From Marsupella aquatica (Eukaryota; Plantae; Marchantiophyta), in assembly GCA_973895155.1 (NCBI GenBank), contig OZ316892.1, positions 21,639,619-21,703,618 on the forward strand: a DNA stretch of 64,000 bases. Direction: 5' to 3'. The position numbers and the translations under genes are program-made. Under the pieces are notes generated by a model. That model saw only the letters and a list, made by a program, of their open reading frames with translations. It was not told the DNA's origin and made no database searches. Below are positions 3,095 through 58,362 of the stretch, piece after piece (the stretch's first letter is position 1; each line of letters begins with the position of its first letter).

Positions 3095-3296
3095 GAGGTT
3101 TTTCTCCATGACAGGAAACAGGAAAACATAACAGTAAAAGAAGATAGGGTTATACTTTAAACATTCGCCATCCATCAATAAAAATAGGGTTCGAGAGAAC
3201 AGTTATAAAACGAAGTTCAAAAGTAAAGCCTGAGAAAAATGGCTCCATGTATTAGTAGGATGTATTATCAGCTAGAAAGGTGAGGTTCAGAAATAC

Positions 3297-4838
3297 TTGG
3301 GCGCACCAATTGGGGTGGGGCTGCAGACAGAACAGCTGCATAAATTCTGTTTAGACAAGATCAGCTCTCGTCTTTCTACTTGGGTAAACAAGCTATTGTC
3401 ATTCACAGGTAGAACCCTTTTGGTTAAGCATATTTTGCAAGCAATTCCTATATATCATGTGATGTACTGTAAAGCCTCTGCTAGTCTGGTGAAGAAGTTG
3501 ATTGCTCTTAGTCGAGATTTCTTATGGGGATACAATGCCATAGGGGGAAGGAAGATCCCCCTGGTGGCCTGGGAAAGGCTGGCACTTCCTAGGGTGGAGG
3601 GGGGTCTGGGATTTAAGGACTTCAGAAGCCACTCAGATGCATTGCTCTCCCAATGGTTCACTAAAGCACTTAACTCCCCGGACCTAGAATGGTCTAGAAT
3701 GCTTGCTGCAAATCTGGCTCTGATGGGATGGATGAACTACAAAGTGATCAGACAAAATCGATATTCCTTTCAAGACCAGCTATTACTGTGTACACCAAGG
3801 TCATATAGTGGCCTTCCATATACAAGTGGACTATGGAGGAGTTGGACGATGCTCAGAGTGCACCTGTCTTTTGAACCTGGCAGGCTTGGGGTTCCGGCGC
3901 GATGGAGCATCTATGACACCTTACATTGCCTTGCAGGATTCCACTCCCATTTGAATGAGGCCATTGTTGGGGTTGCTACCATTTGTGGTAGACTAGGAAT
4001 GAGATCTATTGGGGACGGATGGTCTTTGGAGGATAGAGCCTGGAAGGAACTCCCAATGAGATGGCACAGCTTGCGGGGTTTCACTACTCAGCACCGAGCA
4101 CTTGCACACTCATTCCTAGAATACCTGTGGAACACCAATGAATGTAGGACTGACTTTTACCTATATGCCAAACAATGGAGGTGGGCTGACAAAACAGAGA
4201 AGTTGAAGGATTTCAGGGTGGATAACTGTCGTGTTTATGAATTCCTGCGGCCCAAAAGCTCAAATCATGATCACCTTAACTGGATCTGGTCCATTTCTCG
4301 ACCTGAATTGAGATGGAACTTGGGGTGGTCTAGACTGTGGGGCTCTGATTTGCCAACCAAGGGCAAGACATTCATCTGGAGAATTATTGTTGGGGGTCTA
4401 TTCACGGGTGCTAGGGCACTTAGAATTGGTGTGAGCAATGGTGATTACAAGGTGTGTAGCGGTACCTTATAGACCATCCCCCACATGTTCTTTGGATATG
4501 CATTTGCTGTGAGGTGCTGGGGACTCTACCACTGCTTCTTACGTGAGCTGGGCTTACCAATTGGCCAGGGGCTGCTGACTTTGTTGGACTCTGCTTATGG
4601 GAGGGACCCTGAGCAGATTGCCAAACTATTTGTCTTGCAACAGATTTTATGGAGGTTGTGGCTTGGTAGGAACTCCCATATGTTCAATGCAGGTGGTAGA
4701 CGTACATTTGATATGGGCCTAGTGCTTTCTAAGGCTGCTGAGTGCTTGAATGTTGTGAGTAGATGCTCACCCCCTGGTAGAAAGAACACCTGGTTGTGCC
4801 GGGCAAAAGATAGGATTGACAGTTTACATAGGCTCTAG
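3297..4838 (+). pseudogene. LINE ORF2 C-terminal part (RT thumb, zf-RVT) with an in-frame stop at 4470-4472
   Basis: ORFs 3297-4472 and 4485-4838 are in the same frame. LWGSDLPTKGKTFIWRI...C..TL*TIPHMFF is typical of the plant L1 zf-RVT region. Confidence 0.85.
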
Positions 4839-7009
4839 CTTAGTGATGGCAGGGGCTGTATTTCGACTGGTGGATGACCCTGTGCCCACAAATGGATTAG
4901 AATGCGTGATTAGTGTCACCTGCTTATCAAACAATTTACACGACAAATACATATTTACTCCTACTAAAATCATTTGTTATCATATGACGGGAACGTGGAG
5001 GGATGCTATTAGGATTCTATTGCATGTAGGATGAGTATGTTTATTTATGCTCCCGGAAATATAGTTTTTGATCAAGTCTATCGACTAGTCCCGTTGCTTT
5101 TGATCAAGTCCCATGGACTACGCCACACACACACTCCTACTGGTCGTTGGTGGAGTGTTGTCACCACCCCCCCCCCACTCACATGGTCGACCCATCCGTG
5201 CAAGTATTCTTTAGGCACTTCTTGGGGAAAGAACACAATCGTGAACCAGACAAGATAATGCCACACCAAAACTTGAGGAATCAAACCAAATCCATATATT
5301 TTGGCAAAACGTCGTAACACATTGCAAGGACAACCCGGCCTCCTGCCGTCTACCCAACTACTGCCTCACTGGGGCAAGTGCTACACCTCTACCTCACTAC
5401 TCTGGCTTGATTCCCTCTTCTGGCTATGAGCTAACTTCCCTAAGCAAACACTAGACTGAGTTCCCCCCCTAACTACTCTGGGGCTCTCCCCCTAAATACT
5501 CAAAATAACCCACCAAAGCACCCGGTCACAAGGATGGCGGCTTACCCTAGCGGCACCGCTAAACCCTTCACTAAGAAACCCCTAAACTAAAAGCATGCGG
5601 CACACACATGCTTCTAAAACCCTAAATCCTAAACTAACAATGGGGCCGACGGTGCCTTCGACGGCGCCCCAACGTTACTCCGTGAACCATGAAATTGCAA
5701 GGAACCCCACAATGGCCGAAACTAGGCGCCCTTCCAGTTGCACTTCTGATTTCACCCTTGGATAGCCCTCCTCCTCCTGATCATGAATCACTCAACCGCT
5801 CTTGAAACGGACATCGGACGACCAAGTTATGGCCGTTTCAGTATCCCATAAACCCAACTTCACCGGGCCCTAACTTGCTCATCCTGGCTCCGTTTGAGGA
5901 ACCCTGCCTCTTGTTGGAATCAGCTCCGCGAGCTCTTTCCAACAAGCCCGTGAGTGACTCCTCACAAAAAAGTTGGAAAGTCAAGGGGCCGTACAACCAC
6001 GTCCGTACGACCACTCTAATCCTCCTCCTCTTCACTCACGGTGCCCTGGCTTGAGCCCCGTGAGTGGGCCTCCTTATCACTCTCCACTGGAGTGAGTGCC
6101 ACTTCACTCCTCTTCTTCTTCACCGGGGTACTCCTTGTGCTAGTGCTCCCCTGTTTCCTCAAATTGGCCAAGGCCTGCCACGCCTTAATGTACCCTTCAC
6201 CAATGGTGTTCTTCCATAAGGTCGCCTCTTCATCGGACCGCAACTCCAACGGTAAAACCTGCCTGGTGGCCATGCACTAGTATATTTTTGGTCTCTTTCC
6301 GATACTCAAATCGCGGCTTCTTTGACCCGTCCAAAACTGAACGCATCGGAAAAATTCCGATATTAAACCCATCGTAATTTCCGATTCAAAATATATCGGA
6401 ACTAAAGGTACCGATGTAAAATGCATCGCAAACTATATCCCATACCAGCACTATTGGATAATGTCCAAAATTAATAGCATCGCAAAGAGACGACAAAAAT
6501 AAGGCTTTAGCTTCCGATGCAATAACACTCAGACCTGAGGCTCATTGGAAAAACAAACGGACATGGTCCGATATTTAAAACAACGGACATAATATTGGGA
6601 AAGATATTGCTTCGGAACCTAGGTGCGATAGTAAAAGTAACGGAAGGTGTCCGAAGGTAAGCATATCGGACCCCTCCTTCATCATTTTTTCCGAGAGGTC
6701 CGATGTTTTCTAGAACGGAAAAATGTTTCCGATAGGTTTTGAATCACATGTGTCCCGTCACTTTCAATATCGGAAAGAGGTTTAGTTCTCCGGCCGAGTA
6801 CCGATGCCTGTGCGATGTAGATTCCATGGGATTGACAATGGGACATTGTATTGTGGTCATGGTTTGATTATGGATTTTTGTAGCAATATAGTTTATGCAA
6901 TGGTAGAGAGTGAGAACACATGAAATGCCGATAAATATGTAATGCCAATAAAATAGCCACAAATAAGATGGTAGGGGTTAGCTACGCCTTTGATGTACTA
7001 GATATTGAT

Positions 7010-10000
7010 CTAACTAGTGGAGGGAATGTCAGTATCTTCCACTATAACTACATTAGGTCTATCGTGGACGATGGATCGTGATCGTGGAATGTATGCCATG
7101 ACAATGCACCAATATGAGTCATCTGGATAGGGTAGGTAAAAACATTGTTCAAGGTGATGGGGGAACGCAAAGGGATTTGAGGACCTCCAATTTGAGCTGA
7201 TGACACTATTTGCGGTTGTCTTCAACCGGGTAAAACCGCATGCATCATCTTCACATGTCCAGTTGTGGCCCACAAGATTCATCTTGAACCATTTGCACTT
7301 TAATACCACTTCCTCCAAAGTAGTATGTGCATGGTACTTTATGGTAAGGATTTCCTCAATCTTTCCATAATGGGCGACGGTGGACCGAATGGGATTCCTG
7401 TCTAATGTGCTACTCTGTGAATCCTGGGTGAACCAACCCATCACGCCACAATCTTGTGTAGCTGCCCTCTTCTCATCAAGTCGTTCAACACGAAAATGTC
7501 TCCCCTTGGACCACATGGCTATCCGAGTCGTGACTATAAGTAGTGGACCATGAATCAAGGTACAAAGCTTATCAGTCACCTTTGGGAAGTGTGATATGCT
7601 CTCCCCAATACCCACCAAGGCATCCACTTCTAGCATCTTTGACTTCATGTATGGGTGAAACTTGGGCAATAATCGTGGTCGCCGACTGTTTTTCTTCTCC
7701 TCCTCATAAAATGTTGTCCACTCCCCTACAACCTCTGGTGAATTATACAACATAAATGTTGTGAGCTGCAAACGCTCCGTTGAGCTCAAGAGACGCTCTC
7801 CTGATGCCCCAGTGAGTCTATCATCCTCATAGTCCGCCTCTCGCGCTGCCTTATGTATCCATCCCCTAGGAGCGTTAGGATCTAGTATGGCAACTATGTT
7901 TGTACAATAAAACATACTCTTTGCTCCAAGATGACGCTCTGCGATGCTACCTTCCACCCTAGCGCGATTAGAGACGTACGACTTCATCACCCCCATATAA
8001 CGCTCAACCCAATACATCCATCGACAATGCACTGGGCCTGCAATTGCAACCTCATGCACTAAATGTATGAGAAAATGAACCTGGCCATCAAAGAAAGAGG
8101 GAGGGAGTGCCTTCTCCAACTTACAAATAACCTCTACTCCAAATATCTCCATTGCAGCAATTTCATCCTCCTGTACCTCCTTCTGACATACCCATCTCAA
8201 AAGCTTTCCCAATGACCAAAGGGCATCACGAAGTTCCTCACTACCCAATCCAATAATCGCAACTGGAATGACATGTTCTAGTAACCGATGATAATCATGT
8301 GTTTTCAAGTAAGATGGCCATTTTGGAGAATCATCCCCCCCAAATGCTTTTCGGAGATTTGCGCCATAACCTGTGGGAAACCTCATTGACCCAATACGTC
8401 TGCAAAACTCAGTGCGCTCTGCCCTAGTCAAAACCCAAGGTGGATGGATGCTAGGGGGGTCTCCAGGGGGGTCCAAAGATGGCCAAAAACCAAGAAGACC
8501 ATGCATCCCCATCTCCTCACAACTTTCTCTCCAATTGTGGTTCTTCTCCCCATATAGATGACGAATCAATGACCTCCCCACATTCCCCTCAATGTGCATC
8601 GGATCTAACAAGTGATTAATGGGCATCTCTGACCAATATGGCAACTGTGATAATGCAGACAAATGGGTCATGCCACATCTGAGAAATTGTAATGGATCAT
8701 CTGGGTCTTGAACTCTTTGCCATACCTCTCTCCAATATGCTGGATCCTTTCACTGAGGTTGAGGACGGGTATCAGGTTGGCCCTCATCAGTGTCATACAG
8801 GAAGTGGTCACTCCTCCAAGGATGGTCTGTTGGAAGATATTTGGTATGACCAATGTAAACTATCTTCCACAAAGTAGTTGACTTGCGTCTTGCCACTCCC
8901 TCCAAATCTGGTCCACATGAAGGGCAAGCTCGATAGCCTGATGTTTGCAATCCAGAGATATATCCAAACCCTATGATTGGTCAAGGGACAGCCAGCCAAT
9001 GAAAGAAGGTTAGAGAAAAGAATACAATTTTTAATTAAGTGCAAGATTGATGAAATAGGGTTAAATTAATTGCAAGGTTTACTGTGATTACTTGGTAAAT
9101 CATGCATGGTCCACATAAGAATGGCCTTGAGGGTGAATGCGCGAGATAAACCTCCAGTGTTGCGACGTCCGTCATAACAATCCAAGTCTCCCCTCCAAAG
9201 TTGCAAAAGCTCATCAATCAAAGGTTGCAAGTAGATGTCAATCTTTTTTACTTGCTAAGGACCGGGGATGATCATTGAGAGTAGTAGATGACCTTTCTTC
9301 ATGGCCATCCATGGAGGGATATTGTAGTTTGTTAGAACTACTGGCCATACTGAATATGGTTTTGCTTTACCTGCCAATGCAAAAGGGCTAATACCATCTG
9401 CTACCAATCCAAGTCTCACATGTCGTGGGTCAGTTTTGAACTCACCCCATCTATCCTCTACAAATCGATTGGCAAGAGAGTCAACCATCATTCGCATGGC
9501 ACTGGAGTCTGTACCCATATCAGAACGATGTTGTGAGTGCCATACCATATACTCAGCCAACTCTGCACAACGGTATTGATTTTGCAATCGAGGGATGAGA
9601 GGAAAATACCGCATAACTTTTTGAGGCACCTTCCCTGTCAACATGTCATCACGGTACCGCGGCTTCTCACACTCAGGACATATGATTGCATTTTCATGCT
9701 CACCCCTAAAAAGAATGCAGTCATTTACACATGCATGTATCACTTCATACTTTAGACCAATGGACTTCAACACCTGTTTAGCCTCCTTCCAAGACCTTGG
9801 CATGTTGTTGCCTGGTGGTAAAATGCGATCATGTAGGGTACGAAAAACATCATCCAAAAGTAGGTTGCTGGCCCCATGTCTTTGTTGCACATTCAACAAT
9901 AACATTATTGCTGAGAGCCGAGATAACCTACTCCCCTCAAATATGCGAGTACGAGCATGACGTTGAGCCTCTTCCCATTCCTTCTGCTGGCCCCCCCTAG

Positions 10001-10232
10001 AAGGATGAGTGGTGTTGTCGTCGGTTAAACCCATGTCCTCCATACCAATATCAGCATCATCTTCATAAAATTGGTTCATGAGCCCATCGATGGCCAGCTC
10101 ATCTTCAAGCCGATCTTGGGTAGAGTCATCATCCTCATGTTGTACCTCATTCTCCTCCCCATCATTGGCCACCATGGCCTCAACAAGGTGTTGCCGCATA
10201 GCTCGTGATATTACCCCAATATCAGGCACCAC
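7010..10232 (-). pseudogene. CACTA Tnp2-type transposase (Transposase_21, DUF4218/DUF4216-like regions), spliced and frameshifted
   Basis: Motifs IHACVNDCILFRGE..CPEC, RYFPLIPRLQ, LGLVADGISPF, YSVWPVVLTNYNIPPW, LDPMHIEGNV, LKTHDYHRLL, PPSFFDGQVHFLIHL, GPVHCRWMYWVERYM. Confidence 0.92.
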
Positions 10233-10361
10233 ATATTGATTCTATCATACAACATCAATGCATGCAATCTCATCAACATCAATATTGTGAACAACCAATT
10301 ATCCAATGTTAAAAATGGAAAAGAATCCGATATATATATGTATATATGTAAGTCCAAGAAA

Positions 10362-11652
10362 CTATCTTGGACAGGAACGTAGGGACAATTTTGGTGCATC
10401 CCACTCATAATCACACAATAACTCCTCACCAGCTCTAATGGTCCTAACAGCGACCATCATGATGTGATCATCCATATGTTTCACAAAATATGGAGCTCTA
10501 GGTGGACCAAACATCTGGATCCACTCTACATTAGCCTCCAAATCTCTACCTCTACCCATGGTACTATTGATGTACCCTGCTAAATTACAATTCCGAACAG
10601 GGTCACCATCAATCATCCTACAATGCCACGGCCTAGTGAAGACCTCGTCTGGGTCTGAGTCCATCCTCAATGCGTACACCCCCCAACTTGGGTGTTGACA
10701 CAACAAAATGTTCCAACTCTTAGCGTTGTATACAGCTCCAATGTAAGGGAAAAGGTGCTCTCCATCATAGCCACGTCTCCATGGCTTTGGAGGGACAATA
10801 ATGTCCTCCAAAGCATATAGACCATATCCTATATCAGCACCAATGGAGGAATCTTTCACTATCCAAGAGCGACCCCATATCTCAATCGGTTCATTAATAG
10901 GAATGTAGTCTGGAAATTTGAAGAGACTAGGATCAAAGTCTTTCAAAACGTTGGTTGCCCTACCAGTGAGATAAGATGCTCCAAACCGTCCGTCAACCCC
11001 AATATAATCTACATTGTTGGATGGTCGGGCACTGCCTAACACCTCCTCCCTGTTGTCTACCTGTTCCAGTGGCTCATATTGCCGTCTACGTCTGCGAGAC
11101 CGTGGTCGTGTACATAGGACTCTTGTACACCCAACCTCCGATCCAGAGACCGGTTCACCCTCTACATGCTCAACTATGGGGATAGGAGCAAGGGGGCTAA
11201 GAGGTGGATGGGCAAGGGGGGATGCAAGCAAGTCCCTTGCCCTTGCTAGAAACCCTTCTAGCCACACAACATCATCAACCAAAGGAGGTGGGGGTCTACG
11301 AGGCACCTATTTCAACACACAATAAATTAAGTAGTGTTATTTGAATGCAAGCTAATTATACAATATTTCACCAATTGCCATTTCATGAAATGAAAGGGGG
11401 GATGTATGTATAATTATTTACCTGGCTAGGCAAATAACCTGGCATATCACCCTCATGGCGACCATAGTTCTCAATGTGCTCACAAGTCTCCCAGGCATGT
11501 CGAACCACAAGTCCCTTGCATCTCACACACCAGCAAGGTATGGGCCCTAGTGGAGCACGAGGATGGTCAAGAGGAGGGGGTGGAGGAACCTCCCCCTCGG
11601 ACAAGCTCGTGTCAGAGTCTGAATCCAATGTGGAACTATCGGATGTAGACAT
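10362..11652 (-). CDS. CACTA-borne two-exon ORF: transposase-associated Zn motif (11422-11652) spliced to a SET-domain-like exon (10362-11306)
   Basis: Exon 1 has PCWCVRC...CEHI. Phase-0 GT..AG intron at 11421-11307. Exon 2 has GYGLYALEDI, NLAGYINS..ANVEW and VAVRTIRAGEELLCDY, which match SET motifs. Confidence 0.7.
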
Positions 11653-12822
11653 CTACATACATATCCAATTCAACATGTAAGTTAGATTAAACAACTTCTT
11701 GTGTCGATGTATATACAAACATAATTAAGGAGATTTACATAGAGAGACATTGCCCTACGTACCTCAATGATACCTGCGCTTTGCTGTGCCTATTGGGCTA
11801 TATTCTCGACACACAAAGTGTGGGATATCCAAAATCTCTGCAAGGTGGGCATTTCAATAGTGAGCTAAGTGAAAAAGTGCATGACATGCACACCTCGGCA
11901 AACGATGTGTCAAACTTGCCAAAGTAAACCTCTATGTTACAACTTGAGGAGAATACATGGATGGGCCAAGAAACATCATACCTCTTGGCCGCGCGGTCTA
12001 ACGCTATGCATAGTGCATTATCAAAAAAGACTACCAACCCTCCTCAAAAAAACTAATTAGCCTACCCCTCCATGCCAAAATCAAGGTACTGCACATCATA
12101 TCCAAACACAAACATTAGCCTAACAATGGTTTCACGTTATCATAAGAAAATGTACAACACTATCCTCATAAAAACCCTAAACCAATGTCTCAAGCAAGAC
12201 TATATAAGAATTGCATCATTATAGCCTAACATATTAGGTATGCACAACCAGAGTAAAATTATCCCCCAAAAAATGAAAATCAAGAACAAACCCAAAAAGT
12301 ATCCGTGAAGAAGGAACTAGTATGCACAAGAGTCACATGCACGTCACGGTCACCCTCCCAATGAGGTATGTATCACCCTACATTAAAAAACCTGTCAATT
12401 CAAATGGAAAGAAAATGTTAACACAACCATACCCAACCCAATTTCAAAAAACCCCAAAACTCTAGAATCCATACCCAATTCAACCCAAACTAAACACATT
12501 CCACCCCCTTTGGGAAAGAAAAGGTGCATCCGAAAGAATTCTATAAGGGGCCCGATACTATAAGAAATGGACAAACCTTGGCAAACAAAAGGCAACCCAT
12601 TAACACCGAGGGGTCCGATGTCAAACATATCGGAAGGTCCGATACCAATACCGATGTTCTCGGCTTTGGAAAGTCCGAAGCAATTTGCATCGGACGCAAC
12701 AGGCCAGATTTCAAAAAAGAAGTCCCGACGCTGGTGCGAAGACCTGCGAGTCGGGACAAGCTTCGCACTTGACACTTAGGCTATTGCCGAGGCTGGGAGG
12801 GGAGCTCAAAGGAGGAGGGGAG

Positions 12823-15331
12823 ATGGTGGGAGGCGAATCTGGTGGTGGGGATGGGGCTGGACCTTCTCGGGCATACGATGAGGTGATGAAGGAGATTTTT
12901 GTTGCTAGGGCCGGGTTGAGTGTGGAGGATGCAGCTAGAGTAGTCCCGCTTTTGCAGACCTTGTTTGATGCCTCAAAGATTGAGGCTGAGAAAGCTGTTG
13001 TAGCAGCCATTGCAGCTGCAAAGAAGAAAAAGAAGGAGGCAAAGAGAAGCAAGGCAGATGCAGAGGAGTCTCTCTCTCCTCGAAAACGAGAGAAGAAGCT
13101 TCGGAGGGAGGCTAGGGAAGCTAAGAAGGGGCGAGTAGAGGAGCTCAAGCGAAAGGAAGCAGAGAGAGCTTTGAGGCCTGAGCTACCCCTAAACTCAGGT
13201 GGCTCTCCATTACCCAAGGGCTACAATCTCTTTCGCAGCCAATTCAAACAAGTGGTGCGGGCCAATTTGGGGCCATTAGATTACTGGGGCAAGAAGAAGG
13301 AGGAAGAGAAATCCAGAATTTGAGAGCAAGTGAAAGAACGATTCAAGAACGGGGCACACATTGACGATAGGTTCTTGAACAAGAGGATATCGGCCTCACT
13401 CTCAGACATGCAAAACCATCAAAGAGAGAAATTCAGGAACTACCTTGCTGAGATGCCGATGGATGCAGAGGTGGTCAGGGAGCAGGGCTGTCCAGATGCG
13501 CTTTCCTCAGATGAGTGGGCAGCTTGGCTTGAGGAGGAACTAGCAGTCCGAGCCTGGCTGCAAAAACGTCACTACAATCTTGAAATCAGCCTGGCAGAGG
13601 AGAAGAGGAAAGCTGGAGAGGAAATTGACATCCTCCCTCTCCAACAGATGCTACGACAGTGGCATGCACAAGAGGTAAGACTCCCCAAGCCACCAAAGGA
13701 CATCATAGCAGCTTTGCAACGAGTGCAAGGTCGACCTGTGGTCACTCACCGGATGGGGCAAGGCGGCTCCAATCAACTGAAGGCCAAATTTGTAAGATTC
13801 CTCTCCCTCCTCCCTAGCTCCTCCCCCCGACCACCTGACCTTCTATTGCGAAGAGTGACCGTTTTTTTGCCTCCAAATGCTTTAAACCCTTTGTGGCCCA
13901 ATGGTGTAATTTGCTCTCGGCCCTGTGCTTTCCGATAGGTGTCCGATTCTTTCTGCATTGGACCCGACATTGGACCTCTTGTTATTCATTTTTTGCCACT
14001 AACGTTCCGAGGCAGTTCCGATGCTAAGACAATCGGATGGAGAATCGGACCCCTTGTGGAAAGCTTAATTATCAGGTTTTGTGGCATTTTTAGGGGGCTT
14101 ATAGCAATAGTTTAACTCGGGTATTAGGTTTAGGGGTTTCATGATTGAGTAGCACTTTGTGGAGCTTTTTAAATTAGGGTTAGTTTTGAGAACTAGTTTG
14201 ATTAGGGGTTTATATATAGGGTATAGGATATGTATGGGTATGTGGCCGGGGTCCTATTTTAAATTAGGGTTTACTATGATAACAGTTTTAATGAGGCGTA
14301 TGTAGGGTGTGCATTATGGGGTCCAAGATTGCTTGGTTTCATGCTAATGGGATATTTTGTTTGGGACTGTAAACTGCCAGGAAAGGGAGTGGGGTAGACC
14401 TATTGGGCCATCCGAGAGGGATTTGGCAAAGAGGAATGGACCCCGCGCTCTTAAGCGCCACCTTGAGGATGAGTTGGGAGAGGTTTGTGTTCCCCCTAGG
14501 TTATGAAAATGTTTTTGGTTATGGTGAATTTGTTAGAGTTTTGGAGGCCCTATATAAACAAATTTAACAACAATTTAATCCTAGCTATGTATTGCGTAGG
14601 AGGAGGAGTCAGGATCGGATGAGGAGTCAGGTGGGGCAGGTGATGAGGATGCAGGTGATGAGGATGGTGGTGATGAGGATGGTGGTGATGAGGATGGTGG
14701 TGATGAGGATGCTGGTGATGAGAATGCAGAGGATGCGGCAGGGTTGGTGAGAGTGGCCACGGTTACCCCTATCCCTCATGTTGCCCCCACATCAGCAGAG
14801 GGTGCTGGTTCACATGATGCTGATGGTGTGGGCTCCCATCATTCAGCAGCATCACGGGGTGGTAGGCCCGGGCCGTCAGGGGGAAGTAGAGGTCGTGTGG
14901 GACCAGGCCATCGGTCAGGGGTACATAGTGCACCAGCTGGCCCTCCACGACGAGGGACTAGTGACATACAGGATGGTGGTTCTAGGGGTCGAGCGCCATC
15001 TCGTGAGTCTGGTGGGAGTACAACACGGCACGGGCCAGAGACAGCACATGCAGGTGGAGCATCCCATCACTCGCGTAGGTCTACCGAAGAGGGCTCCTTC
15101 CACTCTGCTGTGTCGGGGGTGGTGGGACATCTGTCTTGCCTGAGCACCATAGTGGTGCATCTAGTGGTTCAGGGTCTAGACCGGCATCAGGCCAACCCAC
15201 GCCATCCACTGAGCAGGTGGCTGCCACGGTTGTGGATAGCCACCAACATGAGGGGTACCTGTACCCCGCCCACGCTCTCGCCCAAAGAAGAAGGGAAGCA
15301 ACACACCTTTTTAGAGGTTTGTGGTACATAG
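12823..15331 (+). pseudogene. CACTA ORF2 (TnpA/Transposase_24-like), divergent from the transposase, with a stop and introns
   Basis: ORFs 12685-13323 and 13330-13938 are in frame across one TGA. CPDALSSDEWAAW and THRMGQGG motifs. Donor GTAAG near 13792. Acidic/low-complexity exon from about 14600. Confidence 0.55.
14630..14730 (+). repeat. 15-bp minisatellite GGTGATGAGGATG(G/C)(T/A) encoding GDEDG/A
   Basis: About 6 tandem units directly visible. Confidence 0.85.
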
Positions 15332-19463: not shown

Positions 19464-19934
19464 TCAGGATATCGACGATCCACACTCATCATCGAGTCTT
19501 GCATTGAACCGATCTTCATCTTGATGAAATCCATCCTCCCGCTTAGCAAAAAAACGCGGCCCTGGAAGGCGACTCCTAAGCTTGCAATTCGGTATGTTCG
19601 AATCAGAGAATCCAACTCGCCCAGTCCACTGTTGAATGTCCCTACAAAATTGCATCCTTCCAACCCCATAGTGATCAGAAGGGTCCGGATCGTGAATAGA
19701 GAAACGCTCTCAAAAATACCGGGGAGGCGATAAATGAGCAGAAGGAATAGATTTTGATCGGAAACTTATCCCCTCGTCGGAGGCTAGCCACAGTTGATTC
19801 CGCTCAGTCGATGTCTCAGAGTGAGTAGTATCTTCAATTGGGAAGTTCGGAAACAGATCACCATCCGATGCTTTGCCCTCAAACTTCACGAGGCGGGAAG
19901 TCCTCTCTTGTTTCACCTGCTTCCCTTTGTCCAT
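19464..19934 (-). pseudogene. ORF3 of Mutator-like copy 1 (156 codons, one internal stop), unknown function
   Basis: MDKGKQ...ETSTERN..DEGIS...PPRYF*ERFSIH...GRVGF. Same length as, and alignable to, 56730-57200. Confidence 0.6.
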
Positions 19935-20360: not shown

Positions 20361-20420
20361 CTAATCTAATCTAATCTAATCTAATCTAATCTAATCTAAT
20401 CTAATCTAATCTAAGCTAAT
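20361..20420. repeat. (CTAAT)n microsatellite just downstream of the ParB-MTase stop codon
   Basis: 10 perfect units at 20361-20410 plus degenerate units. Confidence 0.95.
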
Positions 20421-20425
20421 CAAAT

Positions 20426-47811: not shown

Positions 47812-48069
47812 GGAGACCCGAGCCAGCAGAGCAGCCCCGAGTCTCCCCCACCAGATGTCGCTCCCCCGAGCTTTGACGGCATAAAACAAACGGCGCAGGA
47901 ATTTCAGGAGCAAATCAGGGAGGAAGAGGAGGCAGCCCTGGCTAGGGAAAAGGATTTACCAGGAGGAGAATGGCCAGAGGACATCAGGCGGCTTGCAGAA
48001 AAACGAAGCATCCCTCCAGCCACAATAGAAGGAATCCGCAAGGCGGCTTGGGAGCACAAGCCACGGTGG

Positions 48070-49482
48070 ATGATGCCGATGACTTCTACTTCCTCCACCT
48101 ATGCTAAAAATAGAGCCATGGAGTACGGGGAAATGTGTGGAGAGCTGGCGCTCAGCATCTTTGGGGAAGAGTTGGAGCAAGGACCCTTTTTTCAGAGGGA
48201 GATGTTGGAGAAGCACCAATTAGAAGAAGCAGTGGCTTTGGAAAGAACCAAGAAGGACGAGGTCATCCGTCGGCTCAAGGCAAGGGAAGCTGAAATCAAA
48301 GACCTGAGGGCGGCCAAGAAAGCCCAAGATGAGCTACGGATTAAGCGGCATGAGCTAAATATCATGCAGGGCCAATTGGATACCGCACAGTCTGATAATC
48401 GGATTATCGAGAATAAATTGACTCGAACCCAAGAAGAGTTGGCCGATGCGATCAAGGAGCGGGAGAAGTGGAAGCGAGAGCTGAGGGATGCAGAGGAGGC
48501 CCACATAACAGCCAACAACCGGGCCAGGGCGGAGACCCAGAGAAGGGAAAGGGCATTGAAGGAGGAGCTCGAGGTTATCCGCGGAGCCCTTGAGAAGGAG
48601 GCCGAGTTAGGGAAATCCTATCAAGGGATTATTGCGCTGCAGCAGGAGCTTGCATCCCTGACGGCCAGCTTCAAGGCCGACCTGCGTGAGAAGGACAATA
48701 TGCTCGATCAGACTTACGCCAAGATGAACCAGATGGAGTCTGTCATCATTGCAGAGCTCGACAAGGAGTTAAGAGCGACCCGGGAGGAGAGAGCTGCATT
48801 TAAACAGGAATTGGAGGAAGCCCAAAAGGAGCTGGAGGAGGCGGGCAAGGACCTGGACGAAGTGCAAGAAGAGTTGGAGGAAAGCACGCGGAAGCTAGAG
48901 AACTTACAACGACGAGCCGACAACCAAACGGAGCGGCTGAAGAAACAAGCCGCAGTATTTAAGTGCTTGGCTTCATCAGGGCCAACTCAAATTGAGGCCA
49001 CTAAGTTACCAGGAGTGGTACTGGCCGAAGGACAAGCCGCGCCATTTGCACTAGTGCCGGAAGTAAGTGGGAAGGGGAAGGGGCTAGCTGTCGAACCAGA
49101 AAAGAAGAAGAAGCGGAAACCTTCAGGGTCAGGGAGTAATACGGCTCCACAGACCGTGGTGACCAAGGAGGTAAACCCAGCACCGACCTCAGGCAGGGTT
49201 ACGGCAGAGGATCCAACTACCCTAGAAGAAGGGGATGACAAAGCCGAGGCCAGGATACTCGGTAATGAAGCCGAGGTACCCAATCCGCCACTTGAGTGTG
49301 CAAGGGAGGCCGTAGCCGAGGCTGATGTTGAAGCCGATGCCGTTGCCGGGGGTGGACCCAGTCAGGCCGATGGAGAGTTGACTCAGTCAAGGGCAGGTAA
49401 TCTGTCAGAGAACGAACCTACGGCAGTGGCTGAGGTGGAAGCATTGGGGGCATCCACTGAGGAACAGCCACCGCTGCCATGA
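48070..49482 (+). CDS. Long coiled-coil protein with acidic tail, possibly the C-terminal part of the preceding ORF
   Basis: 470-aa ORF, E/K/R/L-rich heptads, with a KKKKRK basic patch. Confidence 0.55.
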   Translation: MMPMTSTSSTYAKNRAMEYGEMCGELALSIFGEELEQGPFFQREMLEKHQLEEAVALERTKKDEVIRRLKAREAEIKDLRAAKKAQDELRIKRHELNIMQGQLDTAQSDNRIIENKLTRTQEELADAIKEREKWKRELRDAEEAHITANNRARAETQRRERALKEELEVIRGALEKEAELGKSYQGIIALQQELASLTASFKADLREKDNMLDQTYAKMNQMESVIIAELDKELRATREERAAFKQELEEAQKELEEAGKDLDEVQEELEESTRKLENLQRRADNQTERLKKQAAVFKCLASSGPTQIEATKLPGVVLAEGQAAPFALVPEVSGKGKGLAVEPEKKKKRKPSGSGSNTAPQTVVTKEVNPAPTSGRVTAEDPTTLEEGDDKAEARILGNEAEVPNPPLECAREAVAEADVEADAVAGGGPSQADGELTQSRAGNLSENEPTAVAEVEALGASTEEQPPLP

Positions 49483-51732
49483 CGGTGGTGGAGGGCCGCT
49501 CCTTTCAAGGAGGGCAGACGTGGAGGGAGGAGGCGTGAGTGGGCAGGGCGGGCTCAGATCTCTAAGTTTAGGATTAGGATCAGGACTAGGAGGCGGCCCT
49601 GACACTTAGCTTAGTGGGATTGCGGTTCCACTGGTAAGAGCAACACTTGTACTCCTGCCTCGCTGTACATAGGTAGATTCAGTTAGGTAGATTTAAGCTT
49701 ACGCTGCAAGGAATTAGGCGGATCCACTACCAGGATAAGTACCTGGGCAGCAGGGAGCTCAGGGCCTCTTCTTTAGCAAGTTTTTAGTTGCACCAGCCGG
49801 GCTGGGATCAAGTAGTCAGAGAAGCTCTCGGTTAGTCATACAGTGATCCTTGTGTATATTCATGTTTCCTCATGCCTAAGAGCTGAATAGAGTTGGCCTC
49901 ACGGCTTAGTTCGCAGAGCTTGTGTATAAGATATACTGTTTGTATGGCAAGTGCATGGTATGACTCAGTCAGAAGGAGTCATTTTGCTATTTGTGTGTCG
50001 CATTAACTTGTGTGAAGAGTGCCCACATCAACTAATAGAGGAAGGAAAGTAAGCAAGAGAGTGAGAGTTGGATGTGTCGAGCTGAGAGAGGTCTTAGCGG
50101 CTTAACCAAGCCTATTGGGGATCATTCCGGCGGCGGAATCCAAATATACCTAACAAGACGGAGGGGAAGACAAGGGAAGGCCTAGATTAGGCCGGCTACG
50201 TATCTCATGACCCGATGAAGGATCTGTCCAGTATATGTGTGTAAAATGTTAATAGTAGTAGTAGAAGGAGGTTAGCAGCGTCCCATGCCGCTAAGCCGCG
50301 GAAACGGCCTCGCCAAGCGCAAAACCCGCAGGAATCGGCTTGTGAAGGGGGGTTTCTGGGGTTTAGGGAGCCATGGGACGCACCACAGTAGCCACCGGCT
50401 CATCCTTAGTTAACAAAAGCGGGAACCGGAACTTTGTATTGCGATGGAGGAGTGGGTCCAACATCACCATCTTCACTGTCAGATATGTCAACAACAACAA
50501 CAGGAATGTTCCCAACTGCTGGTTTCGGAGCAACACGTCTGACATTAAGCGTGTAACTAAGCCCGACATTCATATGCCAAAAGCGTACTCCCTCATCTAC
50601 ATTGAATGCCGCAGCCCGTTGAAGTTCTCCACTCGTCGATTCCTGCGGAATAATGGATTCAATATCATTCATCCTCAAATCAAATCTCCCGCAAAGGTAG
50701 GTTTCACTAACTTGCTTGTAAGCATCAAAAACTTGCACAGGGATCTTGACGACGTCTCCAGTACAAGCACGTGTAATTACAATTGAGCGAGACATTGTGG
50801 AGAAAATGAAGGAATCAACAAAGCGAATTCCTCCCAAATGGAATGCTTATACTAATGCGTGAAGACGACTGACCGTTATAAAAGTCGTTTAAATACGACA
50901 TAGAATTGTGTCCGTTGAAATCATAAATGTAGAGTTTGTCCTTTTTGCCCCGGTAAGTGCGGGTGTCAAGGATATTTATTGTGTCAAAATGATTACATAT
51001 AGGCCAAGGTAATTCACATGATTTCAGCAGCGCTTGGCGCTACCAAAAATTCCAGCATTTATAAGGTTAGAATTCAGTCACACACCAGACTAGCGCCGGG
51101 CGCTAGCATTGCGGTGGACACCAATAAGTCTTCCTTTTTGTATCTAAAAAACCAATATCGTCCAAATTTAAGCACAATTCAGGGACATATGTACTAGCGT
51201 CGGGTGCTAGTATTGGAACACCATATTTAAGGACCAAATGTGAACGAAATTAAACTTCCTATGCCTAAAGTTCTTCATTTTCAAAAAATTTCACATAAAC
51301 TGGGACCAAAAACAGAACCGTGAATAGCCCACGGAATGGGTAGCGCCGGGCGCTATCTATTGAACACATTTCACTTTATGACCAATGTGGGTAAAGTTTT
51401 ACTAGCGCCCGGCGCTAGCAATGCATTGCCAAGTTTCAGTAGTATGGTCAACGGTAATATTTAACGGTAACTACGGTTAGCGTGATCTTCACAAAAATAG
51501 TTTAGCGGATTTTACATTAATATTTGTCATAGTTCTTAGATTGTCGCTTTGTTTTAACGATAAGTACTACCCAATTTCATCGTAACGTCTCTTAAATAGA
51601 TTGCATGGAGGGAGATAGCACTGATCAATCGGGTATAATACTCCATCAACTGTTAATTTGGTACGGAGATTCAGTACTCGATCGTGAGATTTGTAGTGTA
51701 CGACTATTCGTACAACCCTCATTGCGAGAGAC

Positions 51733-54700
51733 GATGGATGCAGTCCCCTCCTTGTCGAGGGGGTCTAGTGTTGTTGGGGATCATGATCGTGGCTATTGCA
51801 AGTCTTCTAAGTCTTCATTTTCAGGTTCAGTGTATACACGTCGAGTGACAAGGTCAAGCGCATCGCTTGTTCCCATCTCAAGTAATTCGTTTCCAAAGCC
51901 GACACGAAAAAAGATGGAGAATGTTGACACATTTGCAATCGGAGATGTCTCGTTCTCGGAGACCGACCTTATTTTGAAACATGTCCTGTTCTTTGGGAAG
52001 GATTTCCGAGGGTTTAACAGAGCCTCCTAGGATTCCGCTATGTCGGTTGGTGCACATGGAGGTCATCCGCACTTTGCAGAAAGATAGCTCCTCCATTGAC
52101 AAGTTGAAAGATTCTTTTTGTAGTATGGGATACAATTTGTCGATAGGAAATGAGGTTTTATGTTCAACCGACGGACGCTGACGGTGTGACGCTCACTTGC
52201 ACACAGGAAATTTGTGATAGTTGGGATCCAATATGGATATCCAAAAACAAAAAGTTCGAGGAAGAATATGCGGCAGACCCCGATTTTCTTGTTCTGAAGG
52301 ATAAGATGTTCTCAGTTTTTGACGGGAACCATCGGTTGTACTCCTAGATGCTTGTCACTAAGGAAAATCCAAAAAACACAAAATACCACCCACGAGTGCT
52401 CTGTACTGTCTTCAATGGGGACAAGGGTTCACTGATTGAAATTGAAGCGGCGATGCACACCATGAACCAGTAAGTTTGTCTTTTTAGCATATCTTGGAGA
52501 GGAATTGTTTTATGAGCGCCCGACGCTGCTTAAATGTTTTTCTAATTGCTTTCTTTTCCTTCAGGCTTGGACAAGCCATGGTCAAACCGTCATGGATCCT
52601 TGACGCAGATCGAATCAAGAGGATTTTGATTCACAACCTGGAGTACTATAGTAAGCTCATCGACCCTGCAAATTATAAGAAGTTTGAGAAGATCAGGCTG
52701 AAGACGTGGAAAGGATCCTGGTACACGAAGAAGATGCCTCAAGAGGCTCTTGTGTATATTCTATGTGAGAATAAGATTAAATCATATTCTAACCAGTTCA
52801 AGCTTGACATGGAGTCCGCTGCGGCCCTAGGTACCCCTTGGTCGGCCGAGGAGGTTTCCACAAGGCATGCCATAATGATGAAGGAGGCCACCAAGGAGTG
52901 GGCAGTGAAAACATCAAAAATCACTCCTTTGTTGAGTCCAAATTTGAGGACTTTCTGTCTATGTGCGCAGAAATGTATGTTGTGACAGAGAGAAATAAGT
53001 GAGAGAAGAAACCAGATACCATCTTGTGTACGATGGACCAAGCCTGGAGGCTTTTTACTGCTGTTTCTGCACTCGACCCCAAGCTCAAGAGTACTTTGCT
53101 TGTCGCCCATTGCAATCCTGAGCTCCGAAGGCAATACTTCCATCCAAACAGCGTCAATGATGATCCAGTAAAATAGTGGTGTCATACCTGGATTACGTGG
53201 AACAATGTAGAGGGGATTGTAGTGGGGATGTTACAGTGTGCTTTGAGAGAGGTCCAACAAATCATTCCCAAGAATCGCTTGCAAGCTTGGGCATGTGAAT
53301 CTTTTGAAGCTCTCATTGATATAGTTACTAATGATTTCAAGAGATATGGAGACTTGGTGAAGAGTAAGTTTTTTAATACAATGTGGCCTTCAAAGTATCC
53401 GCACAAAGAGGACTACTCTTTGAAGAACCAGAAGCGAGCAAAAAGGTACCTCTACCAATTTTACATCCACATGGAAGTAACTAGACCTGATTACTTCTGG
53501 GCATATCCCGTCGCTTTTCAGAAGTGGACAGTAATATCAGCATGTGACAATTTATGTGATTTGTACTCTATGTACCCCGCGGAGGGAATTTTCCCAGCGA
53601 GACCTTTAAGTGAATGGGAGAGAACCCACTATCCATGGTACCTAGATACAGACAGATGGGACTCGCCCTTTGATCACCGAGAAAAGGATGCTTTCCACAA
53701 GCTCTCTAAGTCCCAGATACCAGTCAGTATTGTTTCTGACATGAAGCTGCATGGACTAGCGGACAATGTAGATAAGTCCACAACAGAATTGCAAATGAAC
53801 TGTGAGACGACAGTTGTTCACGTTGACCGAAGCCGAAAGCCTCGCGCAAAAGGGAAAGTTGATACTGCTGTCCCAAGTGAATCAACAAGGTCCGGGAAAA
53901 AATGTAAGTATAATTTTTAGTTCTTTGGTTAGCGCCTGGCGCTGCTATGCCATTCAATATATGTTAGATTGCATTTGTCTCATTTGTTCCATAAATAGAT
54001 ATATTTCCTTCCATCTCTTCAAGAAAGTTTGGCCAGCGCTGGGCGTTAGTATACTTTGCATTTTTCATACGCTCAAAATCTAACATCGCCTTCCATTTGA
54101 TCAGGGAGAAAGTCAGACGCCATCGGCAGTGGCGATACAAAGATAGATGCCACCCCAGAGGCATCTGAAGCCAATACAGGGCCTCCATCTGACCCACTTA
54201 CACCCGTCGAGAAAGGGAAGTCAATTGCTCCAGTAGATGCGGTCAGTACTAGAAAGAAGCAAAAAAGGGCAATTGAAGGTGGATCCTCCTCCGCTCGGGA
54301 AAGTGCGGCTGCAACGGGTGTTCAACGTGAAGTTGGTGACTTCAAAAACACTCTTTCAAGGCATTGCATGGTTGAGTCTAGCATCTCAGAATTCTATGAC
54401 ACAACGTTCAACAAAGAGGAGAAGCCTGACTGGGTAAATGGTGTAGAGAAATGGGCAAAGGACCTCATGAAGTCGGGATATCGAGACAAGGGAATTGTCT
54501 ATGGGGGGAAGGAAAGATCCCTTGGAGTACACGCGGGATTCATTTACCTTCCTACGGGTCTGAAACCATCACTGCTAGACAGAAAAGTCCCAAAATGGAA
54601 TACCCCTGACCACACACTGGTAACATCATTCTTTTGTGGAATGGACCCATTTTTATCAGATGACGGAATGCTAGCAGTTTTGCATAATGGGGAGTACGAT

Positions 54701-55875
54701 CCTATGTCTCAGGTTATATCCGCATGTCAGGAATCGAAGAAGTTTCATTGCATCTCCACACACAATGTTGTTATGTCAGTTCCTATGTACGCGCCGAAGA
54801 CTGACTGACAGGTAAATTCCAAGACATGATCTCTATTTTTTACACTCAAAAATGTGTATGAATGCAAGGAATGACATATCATTCTTGGTTTATCTCGCAG
54901 ATATTCACGCTCAGGCTAGACATCTTTTGCCGAGTATCTCAGAAAGGGAAAGTACCCAAGGACTTGAGGTTTAGACCTCTGTCTATTACAGAAGATCCCT
55001 CCATCACTAATTTAATTGGGCTTCCAACTCTCAATATAGATCCAACACCTGAGATGGAATTCGCAGGGAATGCCCGTTTGTCGGTTGGATTCATGCAGTC
55101 TGTGATAGAGCTCATCACTCGGCCTCGGGATATTTTCATAGATTGGACAGTTGGTTCAGGTAGCTCTTTCGTAGCTGGAGACTATTCTCGGAGGTTTGTA
55201 GTTGGACTGGAGAATCGGAAGGATTTTGTTGAAACTGGTTCCAAGGTGTTCTTAAATCTACTCTCTTCTAAGGAAGTAGAAACCTTGCCTCCCCCAATTC
55301 AACCACCAGAAAAGAAAAAGAGGGACAACTCCGGTCTGTACTTAATTTTGACTCCGATGATGAGTCAAGTGGGGGGACAGCAGATGAAGTGGACGGGGAG
55401 ACAACTCAGGGGGGGTAAGGAGCAATCTGCTGGCGAGAGTGATAGCGATCACTCTTCTGAGTAATGTTCTGAAACTCGTAAGCTTCTTTCTCTTTTCCAG
55501 CTCCTTCATGCATTTTGTGCTATTGATTGTATCTTTCAATCGGTTGTCTTACTTGGTTATCTACCTAGGTCCGAATGGAATACCAAAAAGCGCTTCCAAC
55601 TCAGAAGAAAAGTTGCACGTTTTGAAATGGATACACCAGAGAAACCATTTGTTTTGCCGTCTTACGTTGAGAACACTGCAAGAAAGGAGGATAGTCAAAG
55701 GACTTTGTGTTGGGAAAACAAAGGTCTCCACCTTCAAAGAGGAGTTGACAGAAAGTTTGTTAGAAACCCGTATGTAGATGATGTTTCTAAGAGCAAGTAT
55801 GTCGATGATGAAGCAGTATCTACGGACAGATCACAGAGCTCTGAATCGGAAACTCAATCAGAAACCGATAATTGA
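51733..55875 (+). pseudogene. 5-exon ParB/Srx-like + DNA-methyltransferase-like fusion gene (copy 2) with several frameshifts and stops
   Basis: VFDGNHRL at 52315-52338, VHAGFIYLPTGL near 54530-54563, LITRPRDIFIDWTVGSGSSFVAG..RRFVVGLE near 55110-55213. Introns at 52470-52564, 53904-54104, 54812-54900 and 55478-55568 match copy 1. Start codon is approximate. Confidence 0.75.
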
Positions 55876-56565
55876 TGTATATTTCTTTTCCAACTTTTAC
55901 TAGCGTCGGGCGCTGTTATGAAAGGACATATATTTCATTTCATATGCTCATAATAAAATTCTAAAAACCACTTGTTGTCTTCAGTAGCGCCGGGCGCTGT
56001 TATCTCGGGGGGGTCACTATATGAAGGGTCATACATCACGTGCGATGGTTTGGGTCATTTATGACCCCCCTAAGTCACTTTCTAGAAAGTTGTACGGCAC
56101 CAATCATGTGATGACACGTATGCATTTTGCAATTAAACAACCCTATATTTCCATAGAAGACTTAATAAGTCTTCCGCCAAAACCATTTAAATGGCCCTAT
56201 ACTTTGTCGCACATGATATGCCACTTCCATGGAAGTGACCCCCCCGAGGCTGTTATCGAGATACATGTATTTCTTGTATAAAAGGTTTTAAATTGGTCTC
56301 TTCCTTTAGTAGCATCGGGCGCTCCCCAAATGTGCACGTTTTTCTTCGAACATTTACATCATAATATTGTTCATGCGTTCTATTGCCATCCTGTCGCCAT
56401 TCGTATATTGTCGTTATGTAATTAAGTCGGGTCTATTTCAAAATAATCGTATCGTGATTAGACTGTTGACTCAACGGTCCTCTACCCGTTGAAGCTCGCA
56501 TGTTATGGGTGTCCACCGATCACCGTCCTTTGGTAGTCACTATATCAACCTTTTGGAGTTACTAG

Positions 56566-56728
56566 GTCGATAAAGGTGCTGACCTTGTCGATAAAGGTGT
56601 GGACATTGTCGATAAAGGTGCAGACATTGTCGATCTGGTTGCGCACTTTAAGGCAAGGTGAGAACGTTGTCGAGCTGGGTGCGGACCTTAAGGCCAGGTG
56701 CGGACGTTGTCAAGCTGTGTGCGGACCA
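56566..56728 (+). repeat. Degenerating 19-21-bp tandem repeat (GTCGATAAAGGTG.GGAC.TT) upstream of ORF3
   Basis: About 8 units visible. Confidence 0.8.
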
Positions 56729-56729
56729 C

Positions 56730-57200
56730 ATGGAGAGGAAGGAACCAATGTCGTTGGACGAGATGCTTGCTTTCTTTAGTCCTTCCCGAGTTCGACCGGT
56801 GGAGAGCCACTTCAGCTCCTTCGAATCAGTTTGTGTCGACACTAAGACCGAGACATCGACTTTTTGGAACCGTAATTCTCTTCCTTATGACGAGGCGATT
56901 AGTCTTGGGGAGAGAAATATTCCGTGGATTGGCGACCGACAGACTCCACGCAAATTTGCGGATCGGTTCTCGTTTCATGAAGTCGTTCCTGCTGATGGTT
57001 AGCAGCCCATTGAACGTCGGGTGCAAGAGCGATTGGGGCGCATCGACTTCCTTAATGCAAATTTTCCGGGCCCCGGCCAAGCTCATGCTGAGCATCAAGT
57101 TCCCTCTTCAAATTATATTCGGCTCAGGGGTTTTGGATTCAAGAGAAACTACAAGCGGGCGAGGGCGGGAGTCGATGATGACTATCAATCACAGAGCTAA
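56730..57200 (+). pseudogene. ORF3 of Mutator-like copy 2 (156 codons, one internal stop)
   Basis: MERKEPM...ETSTFWN..DEAIS..IP...PRKFADRFSFH...G*..GRIDF. Homologous to 19464-19934. Confidence 0.6.
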
Positions 57201-58362
57201 AGGTGTTCCAATCGCAGGCGCTTAGGTTATTTTGGAGTGCATCCCTATGGCGATTAGGTTTCTAGGCAGTGATATTTACGCTAGCGCCGAGCGCTGCTAA
57301 AGCTGGATGCTTTCCATCTATGTTTTTCAGTACTGAATGTTTTGTTAGGATTTGGTCATCTGGGTAATCTGTTTTTGCCCATTTTGATAGGAAATGCTTT
57401 TTGGATCGACCCATTTTCCTCTCCATGGCGTTACACATGGAAGGGCGGGATGATTTGTAGTTTTAAGCTAGCGTCGGGCGCTACTTATACTCATTGCTTT
57501 CCGTCGCCCATGTAATCTTGGTGATATGTTTTTGCCCATTTTTGAAGTAAATGAATTTTGGATCGGCTCAATCTCCAATGTCTGGTTTTCCTCTCAATGT
57601 CGTTAAACATGGATTTTGGGATTTTGAGGTTTAAGCTAGCAACGAGATCCAGATATTGTTGTTGTATGACCCTGCCTCTGTTGATTTGAATTGCCTCATT
57701 TTCAGCCGCTCATTGTCTTCTCGATTGGGGTTACTTAGATTTTCGTTGACTTTTCCCTTCTTCTATGAAACCCTACAACCTTTCCATTCGCTTCATTGAT
57801 ACCAACGCTGGGTATTGGTAATCATCGCAAATTTGGGTCGGACTACCTGACGGGATATTTCCTCAGGAATGAGACGGTTTTAATGAAAATGACTCAAATG
57901 GGCTTTAATTTTGATTGTTTGGAATCCTTTTTTTGGTCCGATGTTTTTGGTTTTTACCTCCAATTCTCCTGGTAACGGTAACTGTTTCCTATTACTGTTA
58001 CTGTTTCTTGGTTCTTGCCTTTTGTAAATACCCCAAAAATGAGGTTTGGCTCGATTTCTGAGGTGCTGTTATTGCCCATAATGCTCTTGTAACAGGACCT
58101 TAATATATTTAGAGGTGTAAGAGATGTTTACTTTTATTAACTTTAGTAAAGTGAGGAGAATCTTCTGAACTAATGATCCAAATCTTGAGTGTGCATTCTT
58201 CCCAAATAATCTTTCAAAATTTACAAAAGGAAATTGTAAAGGGCAGTAAGTAGAGGGTAAAATCCATCCTTTCTTGGGGATTCGAGGCCACTTTGCTTAA
58301 GAGGAGATGGATTATCAAGCTTTAAATTGAGGTATTGTATGGTGCAAGCAACTAGGAGTATG

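Follow-up and report, generated by a model that had tools for sequence, protein, structure and literature searches.

A liverwort Mutator-like transposon family with a predicted ParB–methyltransferase-like cargo protein and dispersed palindromic sites of its own

What might a plant transposon do with a gene that resembles a bacterial ParB protein joined to a DNA methyltransferase, and with a palindrome scattered through its own non-coding DNA? This question is raised by a 64,000-nucleotide window of Marsupella aquatica contig OZ316892.1 (all coordinates below are window positions). Self-comparison of this window revealed two copies of an element in inverted orientation, with 66-71% DNA identity across long coding blocks and one common layout, in which the transposase gene lies head-to-head with a cargo gene (Table 1). 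Our tentative answer, to which we assign a probability of roughly 45%, is that these are copies of a two-gene Mutator-like transposon whose cargo is an accessory protein that loads on specific sites and maintains the activity of the element against host silencing.

An original prediction, made from the letters of the window, held that the two large copies and a miniature inverted-repeat transposable element (MITE) have short terminal inverted repeats (TIRs) and 8-9-bp target-site duplications (TSDs) in common, and this was verified at the ends and TSDs. The duplications are TTCAATCG for copy 1 (8 bp), AAAAATGAG for copy 2 (9 bp) and GGGTAAATA for the MITE (9 bp). The termini are short and imperfect; at six of six ends the first base is G, with a GACAGGAAACAG-like core 15 variable bases in. 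For copy 1, the start at 3096 with a 9-bp TSD that was originally given stands as an alternative, the preferred start being 3095 with the 8-bp TSD. The bounds proposed for this copy otherwise stood. However, its own DNA comprises only 3095-3275 and about 19075-29826, and the 15.8 kb in between consist of foreign nested transposable elements, which alone account for its greater length. When public sequencing contigs from four runs were aligned to the copy 1 core at 80% identity or more, 1068, 1037, 2340 and 182 contigs per run were recovered, indicating a multi-copy family. The empty site of the MITE was present in contigs of two of the four runs, and among the contigs listed none bridges transposase and cargo.

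The cargo gene has five exons (A to E) separated by four GT-AG introns, which occupy the same places in both copies with phases 2, 1, 0 and 2; for the fourth intron of copy 1, phase 2 applies only to the shifted frame of the tail. Exons A to D of copy 1 provide 982 open codons that run through the methyltransferase domain to its end, beyond which a frameshift removes the acidic tail. The layout first described, a transposase facing a ParB-methyltransferase gene that is followed by an independent ORF3, was correct in its arrangement and intron positions. The independence of ORF3 was ruled out, because it is joined to exon D by a phase-2 splice (in frame in copy 2) and because the Riccia gene models P0112 and P0036 terminate in a similar NP[FY]VDD motif; it is the last cargo exon. 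A small open reading frame, ORF4, is conserved between the copies and could be either a third gene or a further exon. We also rejected domestication of the cargo gene by the host, because the gene lies inside decaying copies flanked by TSDs. A (TCTAA)n microsatellite (20360-20424) starts at the stop codon of exon E in copy 1.

Purifying selection on this gene was measured by comparing 921 cargo codons and 817 transposase codons between the two copies. The proportion of nonsynonymous differences (pN) was 0.15-0.30 in eight of eight blocks, against a saturated synonymous proportion (pS) of 0.74-0.95, and dN/dS was 0.10-0.11 where dS was finite. All cargo exons are under strong purifying selection, with no less constraint on those of the methyltransferase part than on the others. 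The dN/dS comparison, which had been named beforehand as a check on the prediction, thereby gave values far from the neutral value of 1, for the methyltransferase exons as well.

We then considered what the cargo encodes. An AlphaFold model of exon A, built with 59 sequences, reached a pLDDT of 80. In a VIA comparison among 48,161 chains, 13 of 13 rows with a Z score of at least 2 were chains that we take to belong to the ParB/Srx superfamily, and the best match was KorB (Z 7.0, rmsd 3.0 over 95). Foldseek placed Srx, Noc and ParB in its top rows, none of them at E ≤ 0.001, and an Atlas row for this exon carried ParB_N at 0.92 (11% of members). When longer proteins were searched with the single sequence of exon A, and when this exon was compared with phages, no match was obtained, and profile searches of PDB sequences returned chance rows only. 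The model thus makes a good case for a predicted ParB/Srx fold, as had been proposed from the DG(N/H)HR motif; DGNHR itself occurs in 35 records, with minor variants in 9 more. Downstream of this domain, residues 183-395 in a model of the Riccia homologue P0109 aligned with Spo0J (Z 4.4), KorB (4.2) and SopB (4.1), in each case over the DNA-binding domain, in three of 50 rows. Moreover, the match starts where that of the N-domain stops (KorB 52-150, then 152-252), which weakly suggests a helix-turn-helix (HTH) domain following the N-domain. A homodimer prediction for residues 8-400 of P0109 scored 0.00 and gave no verdict. Among the clusters that Atlas lists as look-alikes of the ParB exon (23876-24442) are some of fungal DUF3723 (0.94, 31% of members); DUF3723 is an accessory gene of Starship elements.

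At the other end of the protein, exon D matches Pfam PF01555 (N6_N4_Mtase) with an E value of 6.1e-8, above the curated cut-off, and is matched by 99 phage records; for the Riccia C-terminal domain, N6_N4_Mtase clusters ranked first in Atlas (0.95). The homology to methyltransferases that had been claimed is borne out by these matches. In sequence, the putative fold is that of a beta-class N4/N6 methyltransferase, with motif IV placed before the S-adenosylmethionine (SAM)-binding motif I. The SAM-binding loop is kept (DWTVGSG in the window copies, DFAGGWG in Riccia). However, the claim of an active enzyme is not supported by motif IV, which is YLPT in copy 1 and copy 2 alike and takes the form D[LMI]P[ST], NIPT or YLPT across the 32 homologous records where it is readable; the catalytic [DNS]PP[YFW] motif (DPPY/SPPY type) was present in 0 of 201 proteins. 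Most of these motif-IV records are paralogues from one genome and so are not independent. For the rotifer enzyme N4CMT, the available text of PMC8885841 reports that the S and Y of SPPY are required and that changing SPPY to APPA abolishes activity. The methyltransferase domain of the cargo is therefore probably non-catalytic, as judged from its motifs.

The second component of the system is the palindrome, (T)RSTAGCGCCNGGCGCTASY(A), a 19-21-bp site with the core AGCGC-CNG-GCGCT and the centre CCNGG. In the element cores, AGCGC-N3-GCGCT occurs 20 times exactly, 28 times with at most one mismatch and 33 times with at most two. All exact and one-mismatch sites fall within element cores, and the rest of the window holds two matches, both at two mismatches; the nested DNA of copy 1 (3276-19074) contains no palindrome at up to one mismatch. 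By chance, a mean of 0.17 and a maximum of 1 were obtained at that stringency in 30 Markov-2 windows. Although coding sequence makes up 68% of the core, 33 of 33 core palindromes are non-coding, and they are single and dispersed, with no tandem arrays. Six orthologous non-coding regions (introns and spacers) align between the copies at or near the level of shuffled sequences. Only intron 2 scores above all shuffles, through a palindrome, and the top-scoring segments of both intron 2 and the intergenic spacer are palindromes. Since the introns and spacers cannot be aligned but the palindromes persist, the sites must have been kept or renewed while their surroundings were erased. Among 18 mismatches in the arms, 17 are C>T or G>A, which indicates 5-methylcytosine (5mC) of the host in dead copies. 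The notion that the element has dispersed palindromes of its own was thus upheld: they are element-specific, conserved and confined to non-coding DNA.

To which superfamily does the host element belong? Mutator-like elements (MULEs) are recognized by TSDs of 8-11 bp, inverted termini that start with G, a DDE transposase in which (C/D)xxH follows the second D, and a C-terminal SWIM finger, and Zisupton/KDZ elements have 8-bp TSDs and SWIM. Here the TSDs are 8, 9 and 9 bp, the inverted termini start with G, and the transposase motifs of the copies (SFDVM, FM[AV]DNA, DAFH, GSExxHxxMK and CSC..CKH) contain a DDE series with (C/D)xxH and a SWIM-like finger. Searches with the transposase exon pieces gave no Pfam MULE match and no KDZ match, while the SWIM match (E 0.032) fell below the cut-off. 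Because Pfam returned only the latter, the superfamily call is based on motifs and TSDs, with which a Mutator-like element fits. Membership of Sola was rejected, as its TSD is 4 bp in Sola1-1_Ec32 against 8-9 bp here. Since the ends carry repeats other than the palindrome, namely GACAGGAAAC/GTAACAG, these separate repeats are the likelier transposase sites. The transposases of both copies are broken, by stops and by a 1.1-kb inversion in copy 1 and a 4.7-kb insert in copy 2. Contigs of one of the four runs (X3) contain the uninverted joint, and the stop at 29332 in copy 1 is a sense codon in contigs of all four. The joints of the inversion (28046-29159) are marked by a 15-bp inverted duplication, and a palindrome is found 1-2 bp away from one of the breakpoints. 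The insert of copy 2 (45697-50400) contains two long open reading frames (46105-49482), and no notable Pfam match or terminal repeats were found in it. By eye, the transposase N-terminus (25940-26865; 50409-50850) resembles a PB1/ubiquitin-type domain and then a GCM-like cysteine region, labels assigned without a Pfam match.

Relatives of the cargo were sought with several of its parts. The exon B search returned 101 proteins at E ≤ 0.001; among 19 matches that were looked up, eight came from Riccia sorocarpa and two from Calypogeia fissa. In the alignment searches 79 of 79 and 25 of 26 matches were R. sorocarpa models, a proportion biased by the query. The Riccia gene models are 1104-1244 residues long, and in a tree of 44 of 84 segments the two window copies group together, apart from the Riccia clade. 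Beyond the window, an indirect sign of linkage came from a single gene model (P0055) among 175 proteins, which combines part of a transposase with exon B; both run in one direction there, which differs from the window layout. Two metagenome scans found no relative, and no algal protein was among the source-named records of the exon B and alignment searches.

How might these components work together? From the predicted fold, the symmetry of the site and their co-conservation, it is quite probable that a dimer of the cargo protein binds the 19-21-bp palindrome. The dimer would read the palindrome through its HTH, and the nucleotide-binding N-domain would let the protein spread from sites in introns and spacers across the whole element. 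The methyltransferase fold may still bind SAM, and perhaps also a flipped base, and together with the acidic tail it would counter silencing by 5mC or nucleosomes in the manner of VANC, from which this anti-silencing step is borrowed by analogy. Several observations weigh against such an account. No homology to VANC was seen, and the targets of VANC are described in the available text of PMC5735166 as tandem and non-palindromic, whereas those here are palindromic. The Z scores of the HTH matches do not rise above background for a model of 906 residues, and a Foldseek search of that model against PDB and BFVD returned nothing at E ≤ 0.001. The canonical CTP motif of ParB is GxxRxxA, and DGNHR stands in the place where bacterial ParB, KorB and Noc have it. 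GxxRxxA was not found in the cargo proteins, which have DGNHR instead, and because the two differ, clamp sliding is not supported by the motif. Linkage of cargo and transposase is directly visible only in the two window copies. Finally, the MITE keeps two sites without a gene to de-silence, and so it fits a helper of transposition equally well. A bolder form of the anti-silencing account, in which the cargo acts on plant chromatin as a ParB sliding clamp gated by nucleotide that loads at parS-like palindromes, spreads, and carries a rewired methyltransferase fold shielding or re-marking DNA against 5mC, would make it a second Mutator anti-silencing system, built from bacterial partition parts independently of VANC; we consider this form unlikely.

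If the cargo instead helped transposition, it would bind the same sites and bridge the ends or recruit the transposase, for which the Myb-like protein of Harbinger and TnpA of CACTA are precedents. Two palindromes are retained in the 313-bp MITE, whose bin ranks first in summed contig depth in three of the four runs (a sum of depth and not a copy number), and the divergent gene pair is under equal selection. Nevertheless, the sites in the large copies lie at least 200 bp from the ends and fill the introns of both genes, and the ends carry repeats of their own, so that we regard a helper as distinctly unlikely. Dispersed palindromic operators are a trait of KorB, the best structural match, and several sites are clustered between the two divergent promoters, as would suit a KorB-like self-repressor that binds dispersed operators and limits the expression and copy number of the element. 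Such a repressor would leave the retained methyltransferase fold and the sites in the MITE and 3' spacers unexplained, and we find it quite improbable. An N4-cytosine or N6-adenine methyltransferase that is active, if atypical, and marks the DNA of its own element would agree with the retained SAM-binding loop, with the equal constraint on the methyltransferase exons and with the site centre CCNGG, which resembles the CCSGG sequences given as targets of N4C enzymes in bacteria (PMC8885841, available text). The altered motif IV and the rotifer mutant described above speak against it and render it improbable. Least probable is the absence of any link, in which case the transposase or some host factor would read the palindromes, or these would act as RNA hairpins, and the cargo would act elsewhere. 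While a DNA-binding region is predicted in the transposase itself, the two-fold symmetry and length of the site would suit a ParB-type dimer, and ParB-like genes adjoin inverted repeats in an unrelated transposon superfamily.

Table 1. Positions of the element copies, their genes and palindromes, and nested DNA in the window
Feature	Positions	Strand	Remarks
Copy 1, whole element	3095..29826		TIR-like ends and 8-bp TSD
Copy 1, left terminus	3095..3140	+	inverted-repeat match
Copy 1, right terminus	29781..29826	-	terminus comparison
Copy 2, whole element	41647..58034		ends and 9-bp TSD
MITE of the same family, inside copy 1	25317..25629		313 bp, two palindromes, 9-bp TSD
Copy 1, cargo exon A	23877..24602	-	DGNHR-bearing domain with predicted ParB/Srx fold; open reading from 24442, probable start (about 24602) out of frame
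Copy 1, cargo exon B	22446..23776	-	helical domain with predicted ParB-type HTH, and further conserved helical domain
Copy 1, cargo exon C	21569..22266	-	linker and motif-IV half of putative methyltransferase fold (YLPT)
Copy 1, cargo exon D	20826..21392	-	SAM-binding half of putative methyltransferase fold (PF01555), then acidic tail, frameshifted
Copy 1, cargo exon E (earlier ORF3)	20426..20720	-	terminal FVDDEA-type acidic motif
Copy 2, cargo gene	51734..55875	+	exons 51734-52469, 52565-53903, 54105-54811, 54901-55460, 55569-55875; several frameshifts
Copy 1, transposase gene, broken	25940..29560	+	segment 28060-29145 inverted
Copy 2, transposase gene, split	42354..50850	-	D, D, DxxH, E and SWIM-like motifs; insert from 45697 to about 50400
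Copy 1, 16 palindromes (two in MITE), up to 2 mismatches	19088..29635		core starts 19088, 19414, 20310, 21440, 21522, 22309, 22384, 23799, 25054, 25171, 25284, 25429, 25451, 25710, 28046, 29623
Copy 2, 17 palindromes, up to 2 mismatches	42126..57482		core starts 42126, 42238, 43918, 44021, 51029, 51092, 51196, 51342, 51404, 52515, 53931, 54035, 55902, 55986, 56311, 57283, 57470
Copy 1, ORF4	19450..19931	-	small broken ORF; 42% over 52 residues with copy 2
Copy 2, ORF4 region	56720..57230 (approximate)	+	
Nested foreign DNA in copy 1	3276..19074		LINE fragment, unclassified insert, CACTA element; absent from copy 2
Nested CACTA element in copy 1	6275..16094		3-bp TSD ATG; Tnp2 transposase and SET-domain ORF

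Within the nested DNA of copy 1, the fragment of a long interspersed nuclear element (LINE) spans 3276 to about 5035, with a poly-A-like end at about 19070. The unclassified insert (5040-6274 and 16095-18600) is split by the CACTA element and has open reading frames at 16019-17686 (minus). The SET-domain frame of the CACTA element (10362-11306, minus; Pfam E 8.5e-6) resembles the SET cargo of red-algal EnSpm-type elements. Between the two copies, 32033-32716 and 35287-36841 hold host genes, an intronless carboxylesterase (Pfam E 3.7e-50) and a YTH-domain-like gene (by eye). Long terminal repeat-like sequences and a decayed Copia-type gag-pol fragment occupy the flanks (1028-1911, 58364-58707, 59585-60479 and 61936-63453).

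Is this combination of genes undescribed, as was originally supposed? It is known in kind, because cases from Ectocarpus and red algae have been published. Sola1-1_Ec32 of Ectocarpus carries a 1104-residue ParB and N4/N6-methyltransferase gene opposite its transposase; the available text of that study suggests a class of self-modifying accessory proteins that bind and modify their own element, and cites Iyer et al. 2011 for green-algal cases (PMC12477816). The present family is similar in having a single ParB-methyltransferase protein of about 1100-1200 residues opposite a transposase, but the former is a brown-algal Sola element with a 4-bp TSD and a 282-bp TIR, whereas ours is Mutator-like, with an 8-9-bp TSD and short TIRs, in a land plant. 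The likeness is one of description, and the available account of Sola1-1_Ec32 mentions neither palindromic sites nor the state of the catalytic motif. In red-algal (Bostrychia) Plavaka, Zisupton and Mutator elements, the ParB-like PAG3 lies beside inverted-repeat arrays and a PF01555 gene occurs as cargo (bioRxiv 10.1101/2025.02.11.637652). As with PAG2/PAG3 in the available text, a ParB-like accessory protein is proposed to bind inverted repeats of its own transposon, and the cargo includes a PF01555 methylase. There, however, two separate genes are involved, one joining ParB with a 2-oxoglutarate (2OG) oxygenase and the other the methylase with SET, and the PAG3 repeats are described as tandem arrays adjoining the gene; here one gene encodes both ParB and methyltransferase parts, and single sites are dispersed over introns and spacers. 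In chlorophytes and chytrids, ParB-HTH is reported to be fused to methylases of another clade (Iyer et al. 2016, PMC4738411, available text). We found no report for a land plant in the literature, Repbase, Dfam and subscription papers being outside the scope of the search, and the Riccia sorocarpa genome paper mentions none of Mutator, MULE, ParB and methylase.

Compared with bacterial ParB, KorB and Noc, the cargo protein has the predicted N-domain fold and probably an HTH domain in the same order, but also a long helical insertion and extra C-terminal domains, and there is no ParA partner in the element. MpDN4MT1 of Marchantia (bioRxiv 10.1101/2021.02.12.428880) and rotifer N4CMT (PMC8885841) likewise place a bacterial-type beta-class amino-methyltransferase fold in a eukaryote; both are host genes with an intact SPPY and demonstrated activity, and their available accounts name neither a ParB domain nor transposon cargo, both of which apply here. 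The VANDAL elements of Arabidopsis are also Mutator-like, with an accessory gene and motifs only in non-coding DNA (33 of 33 here); the short motifs bound by their VANC21 lie in introns and in intergenic and terminal non-coding DNA, and hypomethylation is reported to spread (PMC5735166, available text). The activity of VANC is proven and no ParB or methyltransferase fold is described for it there, while the function proposed here is predicted from sequence and models. The algal ParB-methylase accessory genes are proposals, presented without a functional test in the available accounts. The Marsupella family offers a defined candidate site, an open cargo frame of 982 codons and many natural copies, with homologues in two liverwort classes (Riccia, Calypogeia), near the tractable model Marchantia. 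ParB clamp loading and sliding on eukaryotic chromatin thus become testable, as does the question of whether the methylase fold writes marks or is that of a pseudo-enzyme. If the anti-silencing account is true, the cargo would join VANC as a second, unrelated anti-silencing system with sequence specificity, and possibly serve as a tool for epigenome editing. Set beside these known systems, what is new is the Mutator host, the liverwort homologues, the support for an HTH and the conservation of the sites.

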